DNA of 64,000 nucleotides from an uncultured delta proteobacterium (GCA_963705115.1 CAVPIX010000002.1:11555-75554), one strand, 5' to 3'; counted from the first letter of the stretch, positions 1 through 7,450 are shown. The notes: generated from the letters alone by a model not told the origin. A program made the numbers and translations.

Positions 1-747
1 GCGGTTCAAGGCTTCCAGTTCCTCCCAGAGGCCCTGCAATTCCGGGTGGAGCTGCCATTCCGCCGGGCCGGTGGCGTACTGGGCACCCTCATTGATGAAC
101 CGGTACATGTAGACCTCGCAGGCCCGGTACTCCTGCTGATTTCTGGCCCAGCGGGTGAAATTGCCGGGGAAAATGCCGGCCACCCGCCAGCCCTTGCCGA
201 TTTTTAAGGTCTCCCCCTGGGTGATGGTGTGCCAGGTCTCCAGGAAGGTGGTCAGGTATTCCGCCCCCGAGGCCTGGCTCATCCAGGCCATCATGTCCCC
301 CAAAAGAGCCATGAGGCCCATTTGGCGATAATCGGGGCGGGTGCCGGCAAAGGACCATTCTATCTGGAGGTTCCGGTCGAATTTGGTCATGAGGGAGGCC
401 GCGGCCAGGACGCCCGTGGCCTTCTCCTCCGCCACCAGCATGCAGCAGGGTTTCCGGAACGCGTCCTCTTCCCAGGTCTCCAGGAGGGCCAGGCGGGCCT
501 CGTAGTCTTCCGGGAAGAGCATAAAATCATGGACGGAGCCGTAGAGTTCCGGATAGGCCTGGCGCCACAGTTCGGCCGCGTCCTCGAAATCCCCCCGCAG
601 CAGCAGGCGACCCGCAAAACGCCCGTCCCTGGTCTCCCAGGGCTGCGGCCTCATCCAGGACACCCTTTTGTCGCTGATGGGGCGCGTCCGGCAATGCTGC
701 CCCATGGGCCGGAAGGGGTGATACTGAGTCATGTCCAGAAACCGCAT
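1..747 (-). CDS. GNAT-like N-acetyltransferase-fold protein, partial (runs off left edge)
   Basis: Hand translation from ATG at 747 stays open to base 1 (MRFLDMTQY...IEWSFAGTRPDYRQMGLM...LWEELEALNR). TRPDYRQMGLM resembles the GNAT acetyl-CoA-binding motif. It is absent from the ORF track because no stop lies in the window. Confidence 0.6.
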   Translation of the reverse strand, partial: MRFLDMTQYHPFRPMGQHCRTRPISDKRVSWMRPQPWETRDGRFAGRLLLRGDFEDAAELWRQAYPELYGSVHDFMLFPEDYEARLALLETWEEDAFRKPCCMLVAEEKATGVLAAASLMTKFDRNLQIEWSFAGTRPDYRQMGLMALLGDMMAWMSQASGAEYLTTFLETWHTITQGETLKIGKGWRVAGIFPGNFTRWARNQQEYRACEVYMYRFINEGAQYATGPAEWQLHPELQGLWEELEALNR

Positions 748-881
748 AGCTCCCTCTCCATATCTCTGTGGATCAAGTTTTGTGAAAATTTTCTCGTATA
801 ACTCATCCCGATTTTTTGTCGTATCTGGTATTATGCGAAAGTTTCGCATGTTGTCAGCAAATTTTCCCCCGGAGGTCTCAT

Positions 882-1901
882 TTGTCTACCCGGTTTTTTA
901 GCGCCCTTGTCACCCTTGTTCTGGCTTTGACCTTTACCCTGGCCAGTTCCCCTGAAGCACCCGCGGCCCCCAAGAAAAAAAGCGGCAAAGCCGCGACCGA
1001 TGCCAAAAAAACCCAGGCAACCGAAGGGGAGCCCAAGGTCAAATACGATACCGGCGAGGACCCGGAATTTGCCAAAAAGAAAGGTTGGCCGGTGCAAGGC
1101 CCCGCGCCCCTGCCCGGCGCCATTTTGCCGGACAAGCGCATCGTGGCCTATTACGGCAACCCCCTGTCCAAGCGCATGGGGGCCCTGGGTGAGTATCCCA
1201 AGGACGAGATGCTGCGGCGCCTGAAGGTGGAGGTGGACAAGTGGGAGAAGGCCGATCCGACCCTGCCGGTGCAGCCCGCCCTGCACCTGGTGGCCGCGGT
1301 GGCCCAGGGCCTGCCCGGCAAGGACGGCAAATATTCCATGGTCATGCCGGACAAGGTGGTGAACGAAGTCTACGACTGGGCCAAGGAGAACAAAGCCATC
1401 CTCTTTGTGGACATCCAGTCCGGCCTGGGCAATATCCGGGACGTGCTGCCGCGCTTTGAGTGGCTGCTGAAAAATCCTGATGTGCATCTGGGGATCGACC
1501 CCGAATTCAATATGGGCAAAAGCGGCAAGCGGCCGGGGACCAAGATCGGCACCTATGACGCCGCGGACATCAACTATGCTTCAGGTTATCTGGCTGATCT
1601 GGTGAAAAAGTACAACCTGCCCCCCAAGGTCTTTATCGTGCACCGCTTCACCCGGGACATGGTCACCAATTCCAAGAATATCGCGCTGCGCCCCGAGGTG
1701 CAGATCGTCATGCACATGGACGGCTGGGGCGCGCCCTGGCTCAAGCGGGATTCCTACCGGGACTACATCATCGCCGAACCGGTGCAGTACACCGGCTTCA
1801 AGCTCTTTTACCACAATGACACCAAAAAGGGCGACCCCCTGATGACGCCCCAGGACCTGTTGCGGCTAGTGCCCCGGCCCATTTATATCCAGTATCAGTA
1901 G
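882..1901 (+). CDS. Exported conserved hypothetical protein
   Basis: The ORF track gives 816..1901; TTG at 882 follows GGAGG. A hydrophobic signal peptide and Lys/Ala-rich linker precede a globular domain (VAYYGNP, HLGIDPEF, MHMDGWG, GFKLFY). Codon usage is strongly coding-like. Confidence 0.75.
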   Translation: MSTRFFSALVTLVLALTFTLASSPEAPAAPKKKSGKAATDAKKTQATEGEPKVKYDTGEDPEFAKKKGWPVQGPAPLPGAILPDKRIVAYYGNPLSKRMGALGEYPKDEMLRRLKVEVDKWEKADPTLPVQPALHLVAAVAQGLPGKDGKYSMVMPDKVVNEVYDWAKENKAILFVDIQSGLGNIRDVLPRFEWLLKNPDVHLGIDPEFNMGKSGKRPGTKIGTYDAADINYASGYLADLVKKYNLPPKVFIVHRFTRDMVTNSKNIALRPEVQIVMHMDGWGAPWLKRDSYRDYIIAEPVQYTGFKLFYHNDTKKGDPLMTPQDLLRLVPRPIYIQYQ

Positions 1902-1987
1902 GGCGGTTTTCGGTTTTCGGGTTTCAGTTTCCGGTGAACAAAGGGGTGCATAAGGATTATCAGTAACGTCTCTACGGATGCCGCCCT

Positions 1988-2039
1988 GTAGGGGCACAAC
2001 TTGCTGCGCCCTGGTGGGCATGGCAAGGCAAGCCCCTGC
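1988..2039. repeat. REP-like palindromes (GTAGGGGC...GCCC family plus GGCATGGCAAG family)
   Basis: gtaggggcacaacttgctgcgccct; related copies at 13001, 22347 and 48963. Confidence 0.6.
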
Positions 2040-2074
2040 AGCACGAAATTACTATGGCTGCCGGTAGATGACGG

Positions 2075-2497
2075 TCAATAGAAAAACCACAACACGGTGA
2101 TAACACCCAGGGTGATGGCCGCATCCGCGAGATTGAACACGGGCCACCAGCCCAGATCCAGGAAGTCGGTCACCGCGCCGTGCCGGAGTTGATCATAGAC
2201 ATTGCTGGCCGCACCGCCCAGGGCCAGCCCCAGGCCGAGCTGGGCGGCGGGGCGCTGGAAGAAGCGGCCGTGCCAAACAATCAGGCAGATGCCGCCAAGC
2301 AGGGCCGCCAAAACCAGGAGCTGCAGCCGGGTTTGGCGGAACAGCGCCAGCCCCGGCGCGGGGGCCACCCGCCTGATGGTGAGCCAGGAGGTCACCGCCA
2401 CCGACTGCCCAACAGCCAAACCACGGCTCACCAGCATCTTGGTGACCCGGTCCAGGCCAAAAGACAAACCCGCCGCCACGAGCAGCCTGAGATACAT
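2075..2497 (-). CDS. lspA: Signal peptidase II (lipoprotein signal peptidase), divergent paralogue
   Basis: Motifs D-x-x-TK, GGAxxNxxD, GAVTDF and VFNLAD in a multi-TM pattern. Both catalytic Asp motifs are present. Confidence 0.85.
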   Translation of the reverse strand: MYLRLLVAAGLSFGLDRVTKMLVSRGLAVGQSVAVTSWLTIRRVAPAPGLALFRQTRLQLLVLAALLGGICLIVWHGRFFQRPAAQLGLGLALGGAASNVYDQLRHGAVTDFLDLGWWPVFNLADAAITLGVITVLWFFY

Positions 2498-2574
2498 CTT
2501 ATCTCCGCGCCTCAGTACGCTGTTTCAAAAATACAGTAACGTATTTGTGAACGACATGGGGCCAGTGAATTTTT

Positions 2575-2686
2575 CCCCCTCACCCTAACCCTCTCCCCCA
2601 TTGGGGGAGAGGGTTATTAAGAAGATCCTTGACAGGTAACACTCCCTCTCCACCCAGCGGGGGGAGAGGGCTGGGGTGAGGGGGGG
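2575..2686. repeat. Inverted pair of CCCTCACCC-x-x-CCCTCTCCC...GGGAGAGGG (BoxC-like) repeats
   Basis: Copies at 2575-2613 and, in opposite orientation, 2643-2686; a third copy at 12652-12694. Confidence 0.7.
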
Positions 2687-2905
2687 CCGGAATAAGAAAC
2701 GTTACCATATTAAGAAATCGTGTACTTAGGTTATCCCGAGTTTGAATCTTACTCGCAAAGCTTGTTGGTCATCCTGAGGGAAGCAAACGCCTATGCCAGA
2801 ATCGGGCCGACCGGGGGAGAAGAGCCCTGTCTCCGTTCCCCCTTGAACCAATCAGGTCTCTCTTCTCCCCGGCCTTCCCGGGTTACCCCGCGCCACATTC
2901 ATCTG

Positions 2906-3460
2906 TCAACCGGGGGGCCTCTCCCCGATCTGGGGCGGCCGCTCCGGTCTCGGGGGCTTTTCTTCGAAGGGCTCCGGCTTCCGGCAGGGCCGGTCCACGC
3001 ACGCCGGCTCCGGGGCCTTGGGCGGGCAGCAGGCCTCGACCTGTTTGCGCAGCGCCGCTTCCCGCTCCAGGGCCACCGCCGCGTCCCCGTGGGTGGCGGC
3101 GTAGAGATCGGCAAGCTGGCGGCCCGCGTCCTTGATCTCTTCCTGCAACCCGGTCTGGAGGTGGGCTTCATTACAGATGCAGCAGGTGTTCTGGGCAATC
3201 TGCTGCAACTGGCAAATCATGGTGTCATTCTGCTGGTTGTTGTGGAACAGGGCCTGGTTGGTGTACTGCGCCTGGGTGATGAGTTGCTGAAAGCCCCAGA
3301 GGAGCAGCTTCTGCACCAGTTCGATGTCCTTGTCGATGATATCCAGCTTTACTTCAATGGTGGACAGGTGGTTGTTGACCGTGTCCATCTTCCCGTTGAT
3401 TTGGTTCGTGTTGTCCCGCACAGCTTTAATGGCGTCATAAATTTCTTTTGCGGATGGCAT
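2906..3460 (-). CDS. Hypothetical protein: N-terminal coiled coil, Cys clusters, Pro-rich tail
   Basis: 184-aa ORF with RBS (aggagga). Asn-rich heptads, TCCICNE and ACCPP...ACVDRPC. No signal peptide. Confidence 0.8.
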   Translation of the reverse strand: MPSAKEIYDAIKAVRDNTNQINGKMDTVNNHLSTIEVKLDIIDKDIELVQKLLLWGFQQLITQAQYTNQALFHNNQQNDTMICQLQQIAQNTCCICNEAHLQTGLQEEIKDAGRQLADLYAATHGDAAVALEREAALRKQVEACCPPKAPEPACVDRPCRKPEPFEEKPPRPERPPQIGERPPG

Positions 3461-3487
3461 GGATATTTCCTCCTAGCTCGTGAGTAG

Positions 3488-4609
3488 TTATAGGTTGCCG
3501 CCAGCTAAAAAATGGGATTCCAATATGTTTCCAGGTACGACACTTTTATAGAGCGCCACCTCCTGGATTTTCCCCCGAAACGGATACAGACGCTGCGGGG
3601 GGGCCCCGATCACCGGAAACAGGTTGCTGCCCGCGCCGATGATGAATTCCCCCTTGCCGGCAGACGAGGCATCGTTGGGTTTAAAGGTAAAAGGGTTGAT
3701 GAGCAGGTTCAGGGCCGGCGACTCCAGAAGTGCGAGGTCCTCCTCGGTGTCGGGGTGATAGAGCCAGAGCTGTAGTTTTTGGGTTCCATCGTAGGTCAGG
3801 GCCAGATAGGTCCGGGTGAGCGGCGAGCGCCCGGGGTTGGCCACGGCCACTTGCTTATACTCGGAGCCGGTGCCCATCCACACCTGCCAGCACAGCGGCC
3901 CCAAGTGGGTGTTGATGTTTGCCGGTCCCAGGTAGAGGCCCCAACCGGTCTTCTTCTGGCCCAACCCTGTCGGACCGGTGGATTCCACCAGACAGAAATA
4001 AAATTGTTGGGCCCCAGGCCCGGTGTCGAACATGGTGGAATCGGGAGACACCCAGGCTTCCAGGGTGAAGGCCTGAGGGTTGAGGGCGTTGTCCCAGGGC
4101 ACCTGCACGAATCCCCCATCAAGTTGAAGGCAGGCGTAATTATTCTGGGGTGCAACGTCAAGCAGGCCGGGGGTAACTCCGGGAATGACGTCGCCGGCGG
4201 TTTTCGGCGAATGGCGCGCAAAATCCGGGGTATTGACCGGATTTAATTTGAAATGATACCCGTCATACTTGCTGGTGTCAGTCCACCATGGACCCGGGGT
4301 GGTCTTAGCCGTTTTGACCGCGCCAGCCGGTATGGGGTCCGAGGCCTTGAGCACCGTGGTCCCGGTCGGTTCCCCCAGCCGCCAGTAGGCCACCAGATTC
4401 TCGGTTCTGGTAATCCAGTTGCCGTAGGCGCCGTGGTCAGGCGGGGTTGGCGGCGGGGCTGGCGGGGTTGGCGTTGGCGGTGTCTGGGCTGACGGCGGTT
4501 CAGGGTCAGGAGCGGGTGAAGTGCCAAAGGGCTTACAGCCGACAAACCCGCACAACAGCAAGGCGACCAGCAGCGCCAGAGCTCCGATCAAGAAATACAA
4601 TACAATCAT
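3488..4609 (-). CDS. LamG/concanavalin A-like domain putative lipoprotein, copy 1
   Basis: Start at ATG 4609 (MIVLYFLIG...GFVGC, lipobox-like), then a Pro-rich linker and LamG hallmarks LVAYWRLGE, FTLEAWV, YLALTYDG, FIIGAG, FRGKIQEVALY. Confidence 0.8.
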   Translation of the reverse strand: MIVLYFLIGALALLVALLLCGFVGCKPFGTSPAPDPEPPSAQTPPTPTPPAPPPTPPDHGAYGNWITRTENLVAYWRLGEPTGTTVLKASDPIPAGAVKTAKTTPGPWWTDTSKYDGYHFKLNPVNTPDFARHSPKTAGDVIPGVTPGLLDVAPQNNYACLQLDGGFVQVPWDNALNPQAFTLEAWVSPDSTMFDTGPGAQQFYFCLVESTGPTGLGQKKTGWGLYLGPANINTHLGPLCWQVWMGTGSEYKQVAVANPGRSPLTRTYLALTYDGTQKLQLWLYHPDTEEDLALLESPALNLLINPFTFKPNDASSAGKGEFIIGAGSNLFPVIGAPPQRLYPFRGKIQEVALYKSVVPGNILESHFLAGGNL

Positions 4610-4731
4610 GCGAAGCCTCCTTTGGTGAAACTCATGCGGAACCCCCTTTTCACATTGGGTGGACCATAAAACTGATTTTTCAACCTTCTGCTCAGAAATC
4701 TTGAGCAGATATCTCCTCATAGGTAAGTAGT

Positions 4732-5810
4732 CTAGAGGTTCCCGCCAGCCATGAAATGTTGCCTCAGATCTAATTGCACCCCGGCATTATTCGGCGCCGA
4801 CAAATCCCTTTTATAGAGAGCCACCTCCTGAATTCTCCCCTTAAAGGGATAAAGACGCTGAGGGGGGACTCCCAGGACCGGAAACAGATTGCTGCCCGCA
4901 CCGATGAGGAATTCACCCTGCCCGTTGGGAGAAACGTCATTCGGCTGAAAAGTAAAGTTCGGCATGACTATATTCAGGTAGGGCACTTCCAGGGCGTCGA
5001 GATCCATTTCAACATAGGGGAAGTACACCCATAGTTGCAATTTATGAACTCCGTCGAACGTCAGCACCAGATATGTCAAACTGAGTTGTGAAATCACCTG
5101 GTTATTGGCATCCTTGAGATAATCCCATTTGCCGATGGCCACTTGATTGAAGGTATTGTTAAAAACCATCCAGACTTGCCAGACCAGCGAACCGGGATGG
5201 CCCGGGTCAGGCCCCAGGTATAGACCCCAACCGGTTTTCCGGGGGCCCAATCCCGAAGGTCCGGTGGACTCCGCCAGGCAATAGTAGTATTGCGTTTCCA
5301 AGCCGGGATCGGGAGAGACCCACGCTTCCAGGGAGAATTCTTGAGGGTTGAGATGATTGTCCCAGGGCGCCATCACGAACCCCCCATCAACGTAAATGCA
5401 CGGGAAGTCTTCTTGAGGTGGAACTTCGAGAAGCCCGGGGGTTACCCCGAGGGTGATGGTGCCGGTGGTTGGCGGCGACTGGCGCGCATAGTCCGGCGTC
5501 GTAACGGGATTTAATTTGAAGTAGTACCCATCAAACCCGCCGAAGGTGTCCTTGGCCGTTTTTTCTGCACCTGTCGGTATCGGCATCGAGGCCGGCAGGA
5601 CCGGTGCTGTTGCCGGTTCCCCGAGCCGCCAGTAGGCCACGAGATCCGGTGTGGCCTGGATCACTGCGGGGTAGTCATCCGGCGAGGGGGGCGTGGTGCC
5701 GGGGGGGGATCACGTTCAAGGCCAAAAACTACATCGCAGCCGACAAAGCCGAACAATAGCAGGGTGACGAGCACGGCCAGAGCGCCGATCAGGAAATACA
5801 GGGCGATCAT
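4732..5810 (-). pseudogene. LamG/concanavalin A-like putative lipoprotein, copy 2, frameshifted in a C8 tract (G8 at 5701-5708 on +)
   Basis: ATG 5810 gives MIALYFLIG...GFVGCDVVFGLERDPP and then leaves frame. Adding one C gives DPPPGTTPPSPDDYPAVIQATPDLVAYWRLGE, joining the 4732..5664 ORF, which is clearly paralogous to copy 1. Confidence 0.8.
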
Positions 5811-5888
5811 GGTTAGTCTCCTTCTCTGATCTGCGGATTCATATGGCTACCCGCCCCGCCTGCCGGCGCTGGCCGCTCTGACCACGGC

Positions 5889-6626
5889 TTACCGGGGCCA
5901 CATAAACCAAAAACCCGCCAGACAGACCGCGGCCAGGACCACGGCGATGGTACGGTGCAGGCTGAGCCTGCCAACGGTTTCGATGTCCTCCCGGGTGGAC
6001 TCGAGCCACCAGCGCCCCAGGGAGTAGGTCGACACGGTGTAAAGGAAGAGCGCCCCCTCAAACGGGAGCCGGTTCCAGAGTCCCACCAGGCCAAGATAGA
6101 TCAGCGCGGCCCAGCCGGCCTCCAGGAGCTGGGTGGGCACGCGACGGCGCCAGACACCCTGAAGGTTGGGGAGATACAGGGCCAAAGGACCCGAGGTCGG
6201 CCGCCCGGCGCAGCAGCCGTTTAAGAGACAGCCCATCTTGGTGAAGATCATGCCGACAAGCAGGGTGATGCTGGCCGCGTCCCAGAAAGGGCCGATGGGG
6301 ACCCTTAAGAAAGTAAGTAATGGCAGGGACAGGAGAAAAAAGAGGATCAGGCCGCCGTATAACGACGACCCGCCTTCCGACTGCCGCCAGATGCGGCGGG
6401 GCGCGTCACGGTAGGTGTGCCAGTGGGAAATGACGAACAGGAGTCTTGCGCCCACCAGGCCAAAGGGAAACAGAAGGAGCATGGCCAGGTAGACCCGGCC
6501 GGGATTGAGACCCTGCCGCCAGGCGCCGCAGGTGCCGGCGATGATGCCCAGGAGGGTGCCGCAGTAAAGCATGACCGGGTAGGAGTAGAGCTTAAGCCCG
6601 CGCCATTCAAAGAGAATCCGCCGCAC
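5889..6626 (-). CDS. lgt: Prolipoprotein diacylglyceryl transferase family protein, divergent paralogue
   Basis: Likely GTG start at 6626 after GGAGG. Motifs YSYPVM, GGSSLYGG, KMGCLLNGCCAG, PTQLLE and RWWLESTR align with Lgt; multi-TM. Confidence 0.85.
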   Translation of the reverse strand: MRRILFEWRGLKLYSYPVMLYCGTLLGIIAGTCGAWRQGLNPGRVYLAMLLLFPFGLVGARLLFVISHWHTYRDAPRRIWRQSEGGSSLYGGLILFFLLSLPLLTFLRVPIGPFWDAASITLLVGMIFTKMGCLLNGCCAGRPTSGPLALYLPNLQGVWRRRVPTQLLEAGWAALIYLGLVGLWNRLPFEGALFLYTVSTYSLGRWWLESTREDIETVGRLSLHRTIAVVLAAVCLAGFWFMWPR

Positions 6627-6814: not shown

Positions 6815-7450
6815 TCAGTTCCCCTTTATGGGCTCGCCAGAGCGGGGCATAAGCAGGTTGGAAACAATCTCCGACAGTTGCTGAATAGCCTTTTCCATGG
6901 CCAGGGAAAATTGCATGGGGGCATAGGCCACAAAGCCGCTGGCATCCTTGGTGGAAGAGCCTTTGCCGCTGGCCGGCAACATTTGCAGGCTCCGCATGGA
7001 CTTGCCGTCCAGGATTTCCATGGTGATGGAAACTTCAGCCTGGGACTTGGCTTCCTGCCTCAAGTAACCGGGGATAAATTCCACCTGGAGCTTGGAGTCC
7101 TGAACATCAAAGGCGATAACCCGCTCGAATTCTCCCGGTCTCGGGGGCACCGTGACCACGGTCACCTGGGAGTAGGCCGCTTGCACGCTTTTCGTCAGCG
7201 CGGCCTGCAGGGCCGGACCCCAATTATAGGTATATTGGTGCTGGGCGCCATACCTGGTGTCGGGCCGCACCGCCACCTCATGGCGCACGAGTTTTGTGCT
7301 AAAATAAACTGCCGCGGGGGCCGAATTTTTCAGGGGCGTGGCCGCAGTGGGGGCAATCTCGGTGGTAACGGTTTTAAAATGTTGCTGTACACAGGCGGCC
7401 GGCAGCATGGCCCACAACATAAGAACAAGGAGAACCTTCCGCATGACCAT
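6815..7450 (-). CDS. Putative lipoprotein of unknown function
   Basis: MRK + hydrophobic stretch + LPAAC lipobox-like site; 211 aa. Confidence 0.7.
   Translation of the reverse strand: MVMRKVLLVLMLWAMLPAACVQQHFKTVTTEIAPTAATPLKNSAPAAVYFSTKLVRHEVAVRPDTRYGAQHQYTYNWGPALQAALTKSVQAAYSQVTVVTVPPRPGEFERVIAFDVQDSKLQVEFIPGYLRQEAKSQAEVSITMEILDGKSMRSLQMLPASGKGSSTKDASGFVAYAPMQFSLAMEKAIQQLSEIVSNLLMPRSGEPIKGN

Follow-up and report, generated by a model that had tools for sequence, protein, structure and literature searches.

Can the lipoprotein-maturing enzymes Lgt and LspA be set apart for a few private substrates? Both are antibiotic targets and are regarded as single-copy housekeeping enzymes, which serve all lipoproteins at the outer face of the cytoplasmic membrane. 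The question is raised by a locus at positions 2075–6626 of a 64,000-nucleotide stretch of DNA from an uncultured delta proteobacterium (GCA_963705115.1 CAVPIX010000002.1:11555-75554), the whole of which is called the window here. An earlier reading of this DNA, made from the sequence alone (the sequence-only reading), had described a co-oriented run of five genes. Translation of the window confirmed all of them: the five genes lie on the minus strand in the order lgt-like, LamG-2, LamG-1, coiled-coil Cys/Pro protein and lspA-like. The best explanation that we can offer for this cassette, and one that we hold to be fairly probable, is a self-contained accessory lipoprotein-processing module with the LamG proteins as its clients, which may well work mirror-wise, from the cytoplasmic side of the membrane.

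The two enzymes of the cassette are not the only ones of the genome. The assembly (G000; 4.0 Mb in 20 contigs) contains an adjacent housekeeping lspA-lgt pair on contig C10, with scores of 141.5 bits (LspA) and 217.2 bits (Lgt). The corresponding scores of the cassette proteins are 84.8 bits against PF01252 for the lspA-like product (2497–2075, minus strand; 140 amino acids) and 120.5 bits against PF01790 for the lgt-like product (6626–5889, minus strand; GTG start, 245 amino acids). Both pass the cut-offs of these families (25 for PF01252 and 24.9 for PF01790) but remain below the equivalog cut-offs, with 62.7 against 73.95 for LspA (TIGR00077) and 62.6 against 118.9 for Lgt (TIGR00544). By its profile scores, the cassette Lgt is a member of the PF01790 family and not an equivalog. 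Housekeeping Lgt is also present in all 14 other cassette genomes in which the cassette Lgt was captured (185–259 versus 78–122 bits), and a housekeeping-type LspA was found in 15 of the 16 cassette genomes checked. A maximum-likelihood tree unites the 18 cassette Lgts in a single clade, with a support of 100/100 and a branch of 1.82 changes per site, and arranges the housekeeping Lgts by taxonomy. The cassette Lgt and LspA are extra, divergent paralogues, as the sequence-only reading had supposed.

Cassette loci were gathered by context look-ups and by a scan of one genome per species. At least 16 distinct loci bring together the four families (Lgt, LamG, coiled-coil protein and LspA). These loci come from three phyla, namely from Desulfobaccales, Terriglobales and Acidobacteriaceae, Bryobacteraceae, Vicinamibacteria, unclassified Terriglobia and Rokuibacteriota. 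Each locus carries one to five LamG genes, and the flanks, which include an aspartokinase, a MacB-type ATP-binding cassette transporter and Tad pilus genes among others, are unrelated between loci. Given this co-occurrence between unrelated flanks in three phyla, the arrangement is far beyond chance. The gene order is permuted in some loci, with LspA-Lgt-LamG-CC-LamG in L019 and CC-Lgt-LspA-LamG-LamG in L023 (CC, coiled-coil protein), while L010 reads Lgt-CC-LamG-LamG up to the end of its contig. All-against-all clustering of the neighbours in 16 loci showed no fifth conserved gene, the other clusters being antisense shadow open reading frames. The distribution is sporadic: the cassette is found in 7 of 83 genomes of the order, in 3 of 8 genomes of the genus and, for one acidobacterial family, in 2 of the 151 genomes sampled. 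The LamG-1 family comprises more than 120 clusters, whose members are frequently paired on one contig; the more distant LamG matches, from Verrucomicrobiota and other groups, are to large, unrelated proteins that the other three genes do not accompany. We conclude that the module is real and conserved, is made of four gene families and has spread horizontally among Desulfobaccales, Acidobacteriota and Rokuibacteriota. The linkage of the two enzymes with the coiled-coil protein and with LamG proteins bearing the GFVGC leader, which the sequence-only reading had left to a gene-neighbourhood search, is kept across these phyla.

One Desulfobaccales metagenome-assembled genome (G001) contains two distinct full cassettes on different contigs (L012 and L013), so that the cassette can be duplicated within a genome. 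The LamG proteins of these two loci are 69% and 73% identical to those of the window.

The LamG proteins are linked to the enzymes not only by position but also by an unusual leader. LamG-1 (4609–3488, minus strand; 373 amino acids) starts with an ATG at 4609 preceded by an AAGGAGG ribosome-binding site, and LamG-2 (5810–4732, minus strand) with an ATG at 5810 preceded by the ribosome-binding site GAAGGAGA; the two proteins are 58% identical (P0014). Their leaders are MIVLYFLIGALALLVALLLCGFVGC and MIALYFLIGALAVLVTLLLFGFVGC, the latter on LamG-2, and both read as MI-x-LYFLIGALA-x-LV-x-LLL-x-GFVGC, the shared leader described before. In the family alignment, the 25-residue leader ends in an invariant G-x-x-G-C (G21, G24 and C25), with GFVGC as the box of 77 of the 108 members. 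Compared to the lipobox [LVI][ASTVI][GAS]C, the Gly at −1 and the Val, Ala, Ile or Thr at −2 fit, the Phe at −3 (99/108) falls outside the consensus, and the Gly at −4 is invariant. The positively charged n-region of a classical lipoprotein signal peptide is absent, since 106 of the 108 leaders have neither Lys nor Arg; a single Asp or Glu is found in 16 leaders. In a rough control with the lipobox candidates of the same genome, a Lys or Arg in the leader was possible for 47 of 52. The 15 residues that follow the Cys are acidic (2–3 Asp or Glu) and seldom basic. This leader is conserved far more strongly than an ordinary signal peptide, and a genome-wide search showed that it is confined to the two LamG genes in this genome. 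Dedicated processing of the LamG clients by the cassette enzymes is thus well supported by genomics and appears likely to us. The view of lgt and lspA as substrate-specific paralogues for two cargo proteins stands as regards divergent paralogy, conserved linkage and an exclusive leader, from which we infer lipidation and cleavage.

Beyond the leader, LamG-1 has a linker rich in Pro, then a ConA-like jelly roll, and it closes with a C-terminal helix whose last residues are AGGNL. An AlphaFold2 model based on the LamG family alignment (mean predicted local distance difference test score 87.5) likewise predicts a membrane helix at the N-terminus, followed by a disordered linker rich in Pro, one ConA-like jelly roll and, at the C-terminus, a short helix. 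Against PF13385, LamG-1 reaches 35.5 bits, above the cut-off of 27.6, and LamG-2 falls slightly below it with 26.1 bits. Foldseek searches with the model returned generic lectin or LamG domains only (E around 1e-6, TM-scores of 0.3–0.4), among them the lectin-like subdomain of clostridial neurotoxin binding fragments, PAPP-A and sialidase lectin domains, and no match for the LamG proteins was found in PHROGs, PADLOC or NCBIfam. Because of these low scores against generic domains, the modelled LamG matches indicate a generic jelly-roll fold and not a function. The number of Cys in the mature domains is even in 73 members and odd in 26, with two as the commonest count, and Cys206 is invariant even where its likely partner Cys is absent. 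Cys parity was considered as a clue to localization and set aside as ambiguous, the sequences being related. Some clients of about 560–620 amino acids (P0074, P0092 and P0113; L019:9650-11500) contain a β-rich insertion of about 200 residues, placed between an NLFP motif and the last jelly-roll strand QRLYPFKGKIQEVALY.

In the window, three-frame translation shows that LamG-2 loses its frame past the leader, where there is a run of 8 C (5701–5708, minus strand). One extra base at this run gives the in-frame reading DPPPGTTPPSPDDYPAV, as in homologues, and a protein of about 359 amino acids. Logan short-read contigs of two sequencing runs from different studies (X1, 2017; X2, 2024) have 9 C at this position. 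Since both contig sets carry the frame-restoring length, the frameshift probably arose in the assembly, or else it is a rare variant; we take it neither for the mark of a pseudogene nor for a demonstrated phase switch. Phase variation at the C run, which was also considered, is not supported by these two sets, both of which have the in-frame length. The start of the cassette lgt was placed at the GTG at 6626, which is preceded by a GGGAGG ribosome-binding site, and homologues begin at an equivalent M/V-RR[IV]LFEWRG; the longest open reading frame runs from 6674. As to transcripts, an exact metatranscriptome contig of 217 nt spans 4508–4719, which is weak evidence of expression of the cassette, and a diverged contig of 266 nt spans 3108–3370.

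To what extent do the cassette enzymes retain the residues needed for catalysis? A phmmer search of the PDB sequences with the cassette Lgt gave no match, and the cassette Lgts were aligned to E. coli Lgt (5AZB) via the housekeeping Lgt of the genome. In E. coli numbering, the cassette Lgt keeps Tyr26, Gly154, Tyr235, Arg239, Glu243 and Arg246, and the clade as a whole conserves Arg239, Glu243, Arg246, Tyr26, Gly154 and, at position 143, a basic residue. There is no periplasmic head domain. In the window protein, His103 is replaced with Tyr (Y-G-G-L for H-G-G-L), Arg143 with Lys and Gly142 with Thr; across the cassette Lgts, position 142 is Thr or Val and position 143 Lys or Arg, the Arg being found in the Acidobacteriaceae cassettes. 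In E. coli Lgt, H-G-G-L is the proposed lipobox-binding site, and the mutations H103Y, R143K and G142A/I/V each abolish activity (PMC4728403). Cassette Lgts also have Cys at 146 and 151. As the local housekeeping Lgt has both, these are a trait of the lineage.

The housekeeping Lgt itself (L001, C10:1118333-1119533) reads G-R-I-G-C-F-M-A-G-C-C-F-G where E. coli has G-R-L-G-N-F-I-N-G-E-L-W-G, so that both Asn146 and Glu151 are changed to Cys in an enzyme that is presumably functional. E151A and E151Q are inactive in E. coli (PMC4728403).

The cassette LspA matches solved LspA structures (5DIR, 9EMZ and 6RYO; E of 4e-8 to 2.5e-9). It keeps Asp23, Lys27, Asn112, Asp124, Asn140 and Asp143 (P. aeruginosa numbering), hence the catalytic Asp dyad. 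The motifs V-T-D-F, F-N-L-A-D and G-G-A-x-S-N are kept in the window and in the clade, although only Asn140 is without exception. Arg116 is a Gln in the window LspA and an Arg in the others. The β-cradle motif N-x-G-A-A-F (Asn54 and Gly56) is absent from all cassette LspAs, both outer loops are shortened and the terminal tails are missing.

By the positive-inside rule, membrane-protein homologues whose Lys+Arg bias is opposite are expected to take up opposite orientations in the membrane. We mapped the loops of the enzymes by alignment, those of Lgt with E. coli Lgt as the reference, and read the topology from the Lys+Arg counts on either side. On average, the cassette Lgts (n = 16) carry 16.2 Lys+Arg in the periplasm-equivalent segments and 4.2 in the cytoplasm-equivalent ones (bias −8 to −16), compared to 8.3 and 12.2 in the housekeeping Lgts (n = 18; bias −2 to +8) and to 7 and 13 in E. 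coli Lgt (n = 1; bias +6). The ranges of cassette and housekeeping Lgt do not overlap. The window Lgt has 15 periplasm-equivalent and 4 cytoplasm-equivalent Lys+Arg. Single periplasm-equivalent segments of the cassette Lgts carry up to 8 of them, for a total of 14–19, and the cytoplasm-equivalent loops have 2–6 in 15 of the 16 sequences; the remaining one (L028, with 10) has a reading frame that overruns the gene. For LspA, the cassette enzymes average 7.9 periplasm-equivalent and 1.0 cytoplasm-equivalent Lys+Arg (n = 18; bias −3 to −13) and the housekeeping enzymes 4.1 and 4.7 (n = 14; bias −3 to +8), and the window protein has 5 and 2. E. coli Lgt conforms to the positive-inside rule and carries its active site within the membrane's periplasmic half (PMC4728403). 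The usual Lgt has a periplasmic N-terminus and periplasmic active-site loops, and the usual LspA has its two termini in the cytoplasm. With the bias reversed in both enzymes, the positive-inside rule would place the active sites of the cassette enzymes towards the cytoplasm. We regard this inversion, which is read from charge counts, as plausible, at a little under an even chance.

The fourth member of the cassette is a leaderless protein of 184 amino acids (3460–2906, minus strand). According to an alignment of the family (A2), a conserved MPSA N-terminus leads into a heptad region whose length varies; a conserved core, in which six Cys are invariant, is followed by a Pro-rich tail of the form E-x-CCPP-x4-P-x-C-x4-C. 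The protein has no match among the families of Pfam, NCBIfam, PHROG or PADLOC, the Pfam matches NPV_P10, DUF7310 and XhlA having been rejected as generic coiled-coil noise. AlphaFold2 predicts for the monomer a helix at 4–123, a second one at 125–144 and a disordered tail, with a predicted template modelling score of 0.37; since it is essentially one long helix with this low score, the model says little, and Foldseek found no matches to it. A profile search over 1.84 billion representative proteins recovered 224 clusters at 50% identity (E ≤ 1e-10), mostly of 160–200 amino acids. None of the family members examined, fusions included, has a signal peptide.

Two types of fusion contain the coiled-coil core. 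The first joins an astacin metalloprotease, about seven AWKGSGN[DE]NLNV repeats and the core; in the second, the core is followed by a C-terminal domain of about 500 amino acids with a BNR-like S-T-D-x-G-x-T-F motif. Neither has a signal peptide. These proteins (P0196 and P0268 at loci L114 and L116; P0253 and P0219 at L115) are encoded on short contigs of 1.7–4.5 kb, on which no Lgt, LspA or LamG gene was seen beside them. Because it recurs in such larger proteins, the core looks like a portable assembly module.

How could these four components work together? In the explanation that we favour, the LamG proteins would insert into the cytoplasmic membrane through their 24-residue charge-free hydrophobic leader with its G-F-[VAI]-G-C box. 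The cassette Lgt would then attach a diacylglyceryl group to the Cys of the box, its Y-G-G-L being presumably adapted to the odd box, and the minimal LspA would cleave the leader ahead of this Cys. One to five LamG paralogues with an N-terminal lipid anchor would result, and these would act jointly with the coiled-coil Cys/Pro protein, which would be oligomeric. The leader would lie N-out/C-in, with the active sites in the cytoplasm and the product in the inner leaflet, beside a cytoplasmic coiled-coil protein. Mirror-wise processing is favoured on account of the reversed charge in both enzymes, the leader without Lys or Arg and the partner without an export signal. The complete picture, in which flipped Lgt and LspA enzymes lipidate and trim N-out/C-in clients whose LamG modules join a cytoplasmic Cys-rich coiled-coil scaffold, is put forward tentatively, as an idea that may well prove wrong. 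As for the cellular role, an assembly that is tethered to the membrane and serves for binding or as a scaffold would be our guess. The sequence-only reading had thought of a surface lectin or adhesin, or of a secreted particle with the coiled-coil protein as its stalk. We found nothing in favour of either, the coiled-coil protein has no signal peptide, and a surface or secreted product is made less attractive by the lack of a positive n-region and by the reversed Lys+Arg of both enzymes.

Several points weigh against the inversion and would suit a dedicated module in the usual orientation, which we consider somewhat unlikely although deserving of attention. There, the leader would be a signal anchor of the signal recognition particle/Sec type, Lgt and LspA would act at the periplasmic face, since a G-F-V-G-C box or an uncharged leader would not be accepted by the housekeeping enzymes, and the LamG proteins would be envelope or surface lectins; the coiled-coil protein would be a cytoplasmic chaperone or regulator, or be exported by an unknown route. 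LamG/ConA-like domains are typically extracytoplasmic, and such a fold behind a Pro-rich tether is typical of exported lipoproteins. The flanks of the leader itself do not favour C-in, as the residues past the Cys are acidic and seldom basic, and the charge-difference rule mildly favours the usual N-in. The mostly even Cys count of the mature LamG domains would suit disulfides, although the sequences are not independent. The fusion partners of the coiled-coil core, astacin and the domain with the BNR-like motif, are both usually secreted and hint at an extracytoplasmic setting. The charge contrast is also less decisive for LspA than for Lgt, the bias of housekeeping LspA being only slight. Finally, every known Lgt and LspA acts on the outer face (PMC4728403, PMC8689077). 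On the other hand, the usual orientation requires the translocation of Lgt segments with their up to 8 Lys+Arg each, and LspA shows an equivalent charge reversal. Moreover, the nearly complete lack of Lys and Arg in the leaders looks like selection against a normal n-region, and no signal peptide is seen in the coiled-coil family.

The substitutions in Lgt raise a different objection. With Tyr103, Lys143 and Thr142 at positions where substitutions inactivate the E. coli enzyme, the activity of the window Lgt cannot be assumed, and the protein may have no activity or carry out another reaction; from the alignment, it is equally conceivable that these changes adapt the enzyme to the G-F-V-G-C box. 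An Lgt-like protein that no longer makes classical lipoproteins would be an inactive membrane scaffold or a receptor for the leader, or it would transfer another group or use another acceptor, e.g., an invariant Cys of the coiled-coil tail, and the LamG proteins would be processed by LspA alone or by neither enzyme. The Thr or Val at 142 throughout the cassettes, the missing head domain, the score under the equivalog cut-off and the six invariant Cys of the coiled-coil protein, its CC pair included, all agree with such a loss or change of function. We nevertheless judge it improbable, for the residues named above, from Arg239, Glu243 and Arg246 to Tyr26, Gly154 and the basic residue at 143, are conserved throughout the Lgt clade, and the invariant G-C box, the strict co-occurrence with an Asp-dyad LspA and the exclusive leader fit the classical two-step logic. 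In addition, the data from E. coli mutants transfer imperfectly, given that the housekeeping Lgt of this very genome departs from E. coli at Asn146 and Glu151. It is harder still to see the cassette enzymes as self-resistance or back-up copies against inhibitors of the lipoprotein pathway, with LamG adjacency as an incidental feature. Extra lspA copies are known from antibiotic biosynthesis clusters (PMC8689077), but no biosynthetic genes are conserved around the cassette, which keeps its four families only. LamG and the coiled-coil protein are linked to the enzymes in every locus while the flanks differ, and such highly divergent, charge-reversed enzymes are unlike a spare housekeeping copy; we give this idea hardly any credence. 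A search with the PADLOC anti-phage defence models gave no match for the four cassette proteins.

The module of private enzymes and LamG clients can be set beside several known systems. It resembles the housekeeping pathway (Lgt, LspA and, in diderms, Lnt) in its PF01790 and PF01252 enzymes, in client leaders that are hydrophobic and end in a small residue followed by G-C, and in the retained Asp dyad of LspA and Arg239/Glu243/Arg246 network of Lgt. It differs in that its enzymes are extra divergent paralogues encoded beside their own clients, that the box is G-F-V-G-C with Phe at −3 behind an uncharged n-region, and that its Lgt, which lacks the head domain, carries Y-G-G-L together with Lys or Arg at 143 and Thr or Val at 142. 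Its LspA is without the N-x-G-A-A-F motif and the terminal tails, both enzymes are charge-reversed, there is no Lnt, and a leaderless coiled-coil protein is an obligatory fourth member. Dedicated pairs of sorting enzyme and signal are known from sortase/LPXTG, exosortase/PEP-CTERM and rhombosortase/GlyGly-CTERM. Like these, the cassette has a sharply conserved terminal membrane-spanning signal which occurs only on proteins found with a private processing enzyme; the signals of those pairs are C-terminal, however, and their transpeptidases and proteases are unrelated to Lgt and LspA. Compared to known families of oppositely oriented homologues, an inversion of the cassette would move a whole post-translational pathway to the other face of the membrane. 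The lspA3 and lspA4 genes of the M. xanthus myxovirescin cluster and the second lspA of globomycin producers, thought to confer self-resistance, are similar in being additional lspA copies outside the housekeeping operon and within a specialized gene cluster (PMC8689077). Unlike the cassette, they belong to biosynthetic clusters and lack a private Lgt, dedicated clients and a reversed charge. The nearest published concept is that of the Skillet-1 Lipocone operons, in which a private membrane lipid-transfer enzyme is encoded beside ConA-like or jelly-roll clients with an odd, lipobox-like "GS" leader (Burroughs et al. 2025, PMC12419801). That enzyme belongs to the Lipocone superfamily, with a Ser acceptor, no private signal peptidase II, no coiled-coil partner and a predicted outward-facing orientation. 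A full-text literature search found no description of this cassette, nor of an Lgt or LspA facing the cytoplasm. The cassette is apparently undescribed, in agreement with the sequence-only reading, which knew of no account of the cluster.

If a private, substrate-linked Lgt/LspA pair is confirmed, the lipoprotein pathway would have been duplicated and retuned for particular clients, as sortases and exosortases have been. A defined charge-free leader, together with altered residues at the proposed lipobox-binding site, offers a natural experiment in substrate recognition by Lgt and LspA. If the inversion is also true, proteins would be diacylglycerylated inside the cell, and bacterial membrane anchors would gain a new class and cytoplasmic assemblies a new tether; the mirror-image pathway would be the first Lgt/LspA-type protein lipidation within the bacterial cytoplasm. 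The cassette also supplies a context for the uncharacterized coiled-coil family with its roughly 220 clusters.

Some further features of the locus and the assembly were noted. About 190 bp upstream of the cassette and on the same strand, a protein of 211 amino acids (6815–7450, minus strand) has the classical lipoprotein leader MVMRKVLLVLMLWAMLPAAC with a positive n-region. Its gene is not kept beside the cassette elsewhere, and its leader can be set against the charge-free one of the LamG proteins as an internal contrast. Between the coiled-coil gene and lspA, the 408-bp gap contains a long imperfect hairpin at 2575–2684 (arms CCCTCTCCCC...GGGGAGAGGG). Its core motif has about 78 copies genome-wide, as in a repeat resembling repetitive extragenic palindromes or miniature inverted-repeat transposable elements. 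Rfam returned for this gap sub-threshold microRNA-like matches on the hairpin and nothing else. The repetition of the hairpin across the genome explains both these spurious matches and the unrelated metatranscriptome contigs drawn in by it.

A third LspA gene, on contig C8, was discarded as a candidate: C8:1-15331 is a 99.1% identical duplicate of C2:1-15337 and represents a haplotype or a redundant contig. The duplicate is a reverse complement with 16 gaps, corresponds to window positions 1–3783 and breaks inside LamG-1. The C8 copies of LspA and LamG-1 are frameshifted, which looks like strain-level redundancy or assembly indel errors. One identical stretch is likewise present on both C16 and C18 of this assembly.

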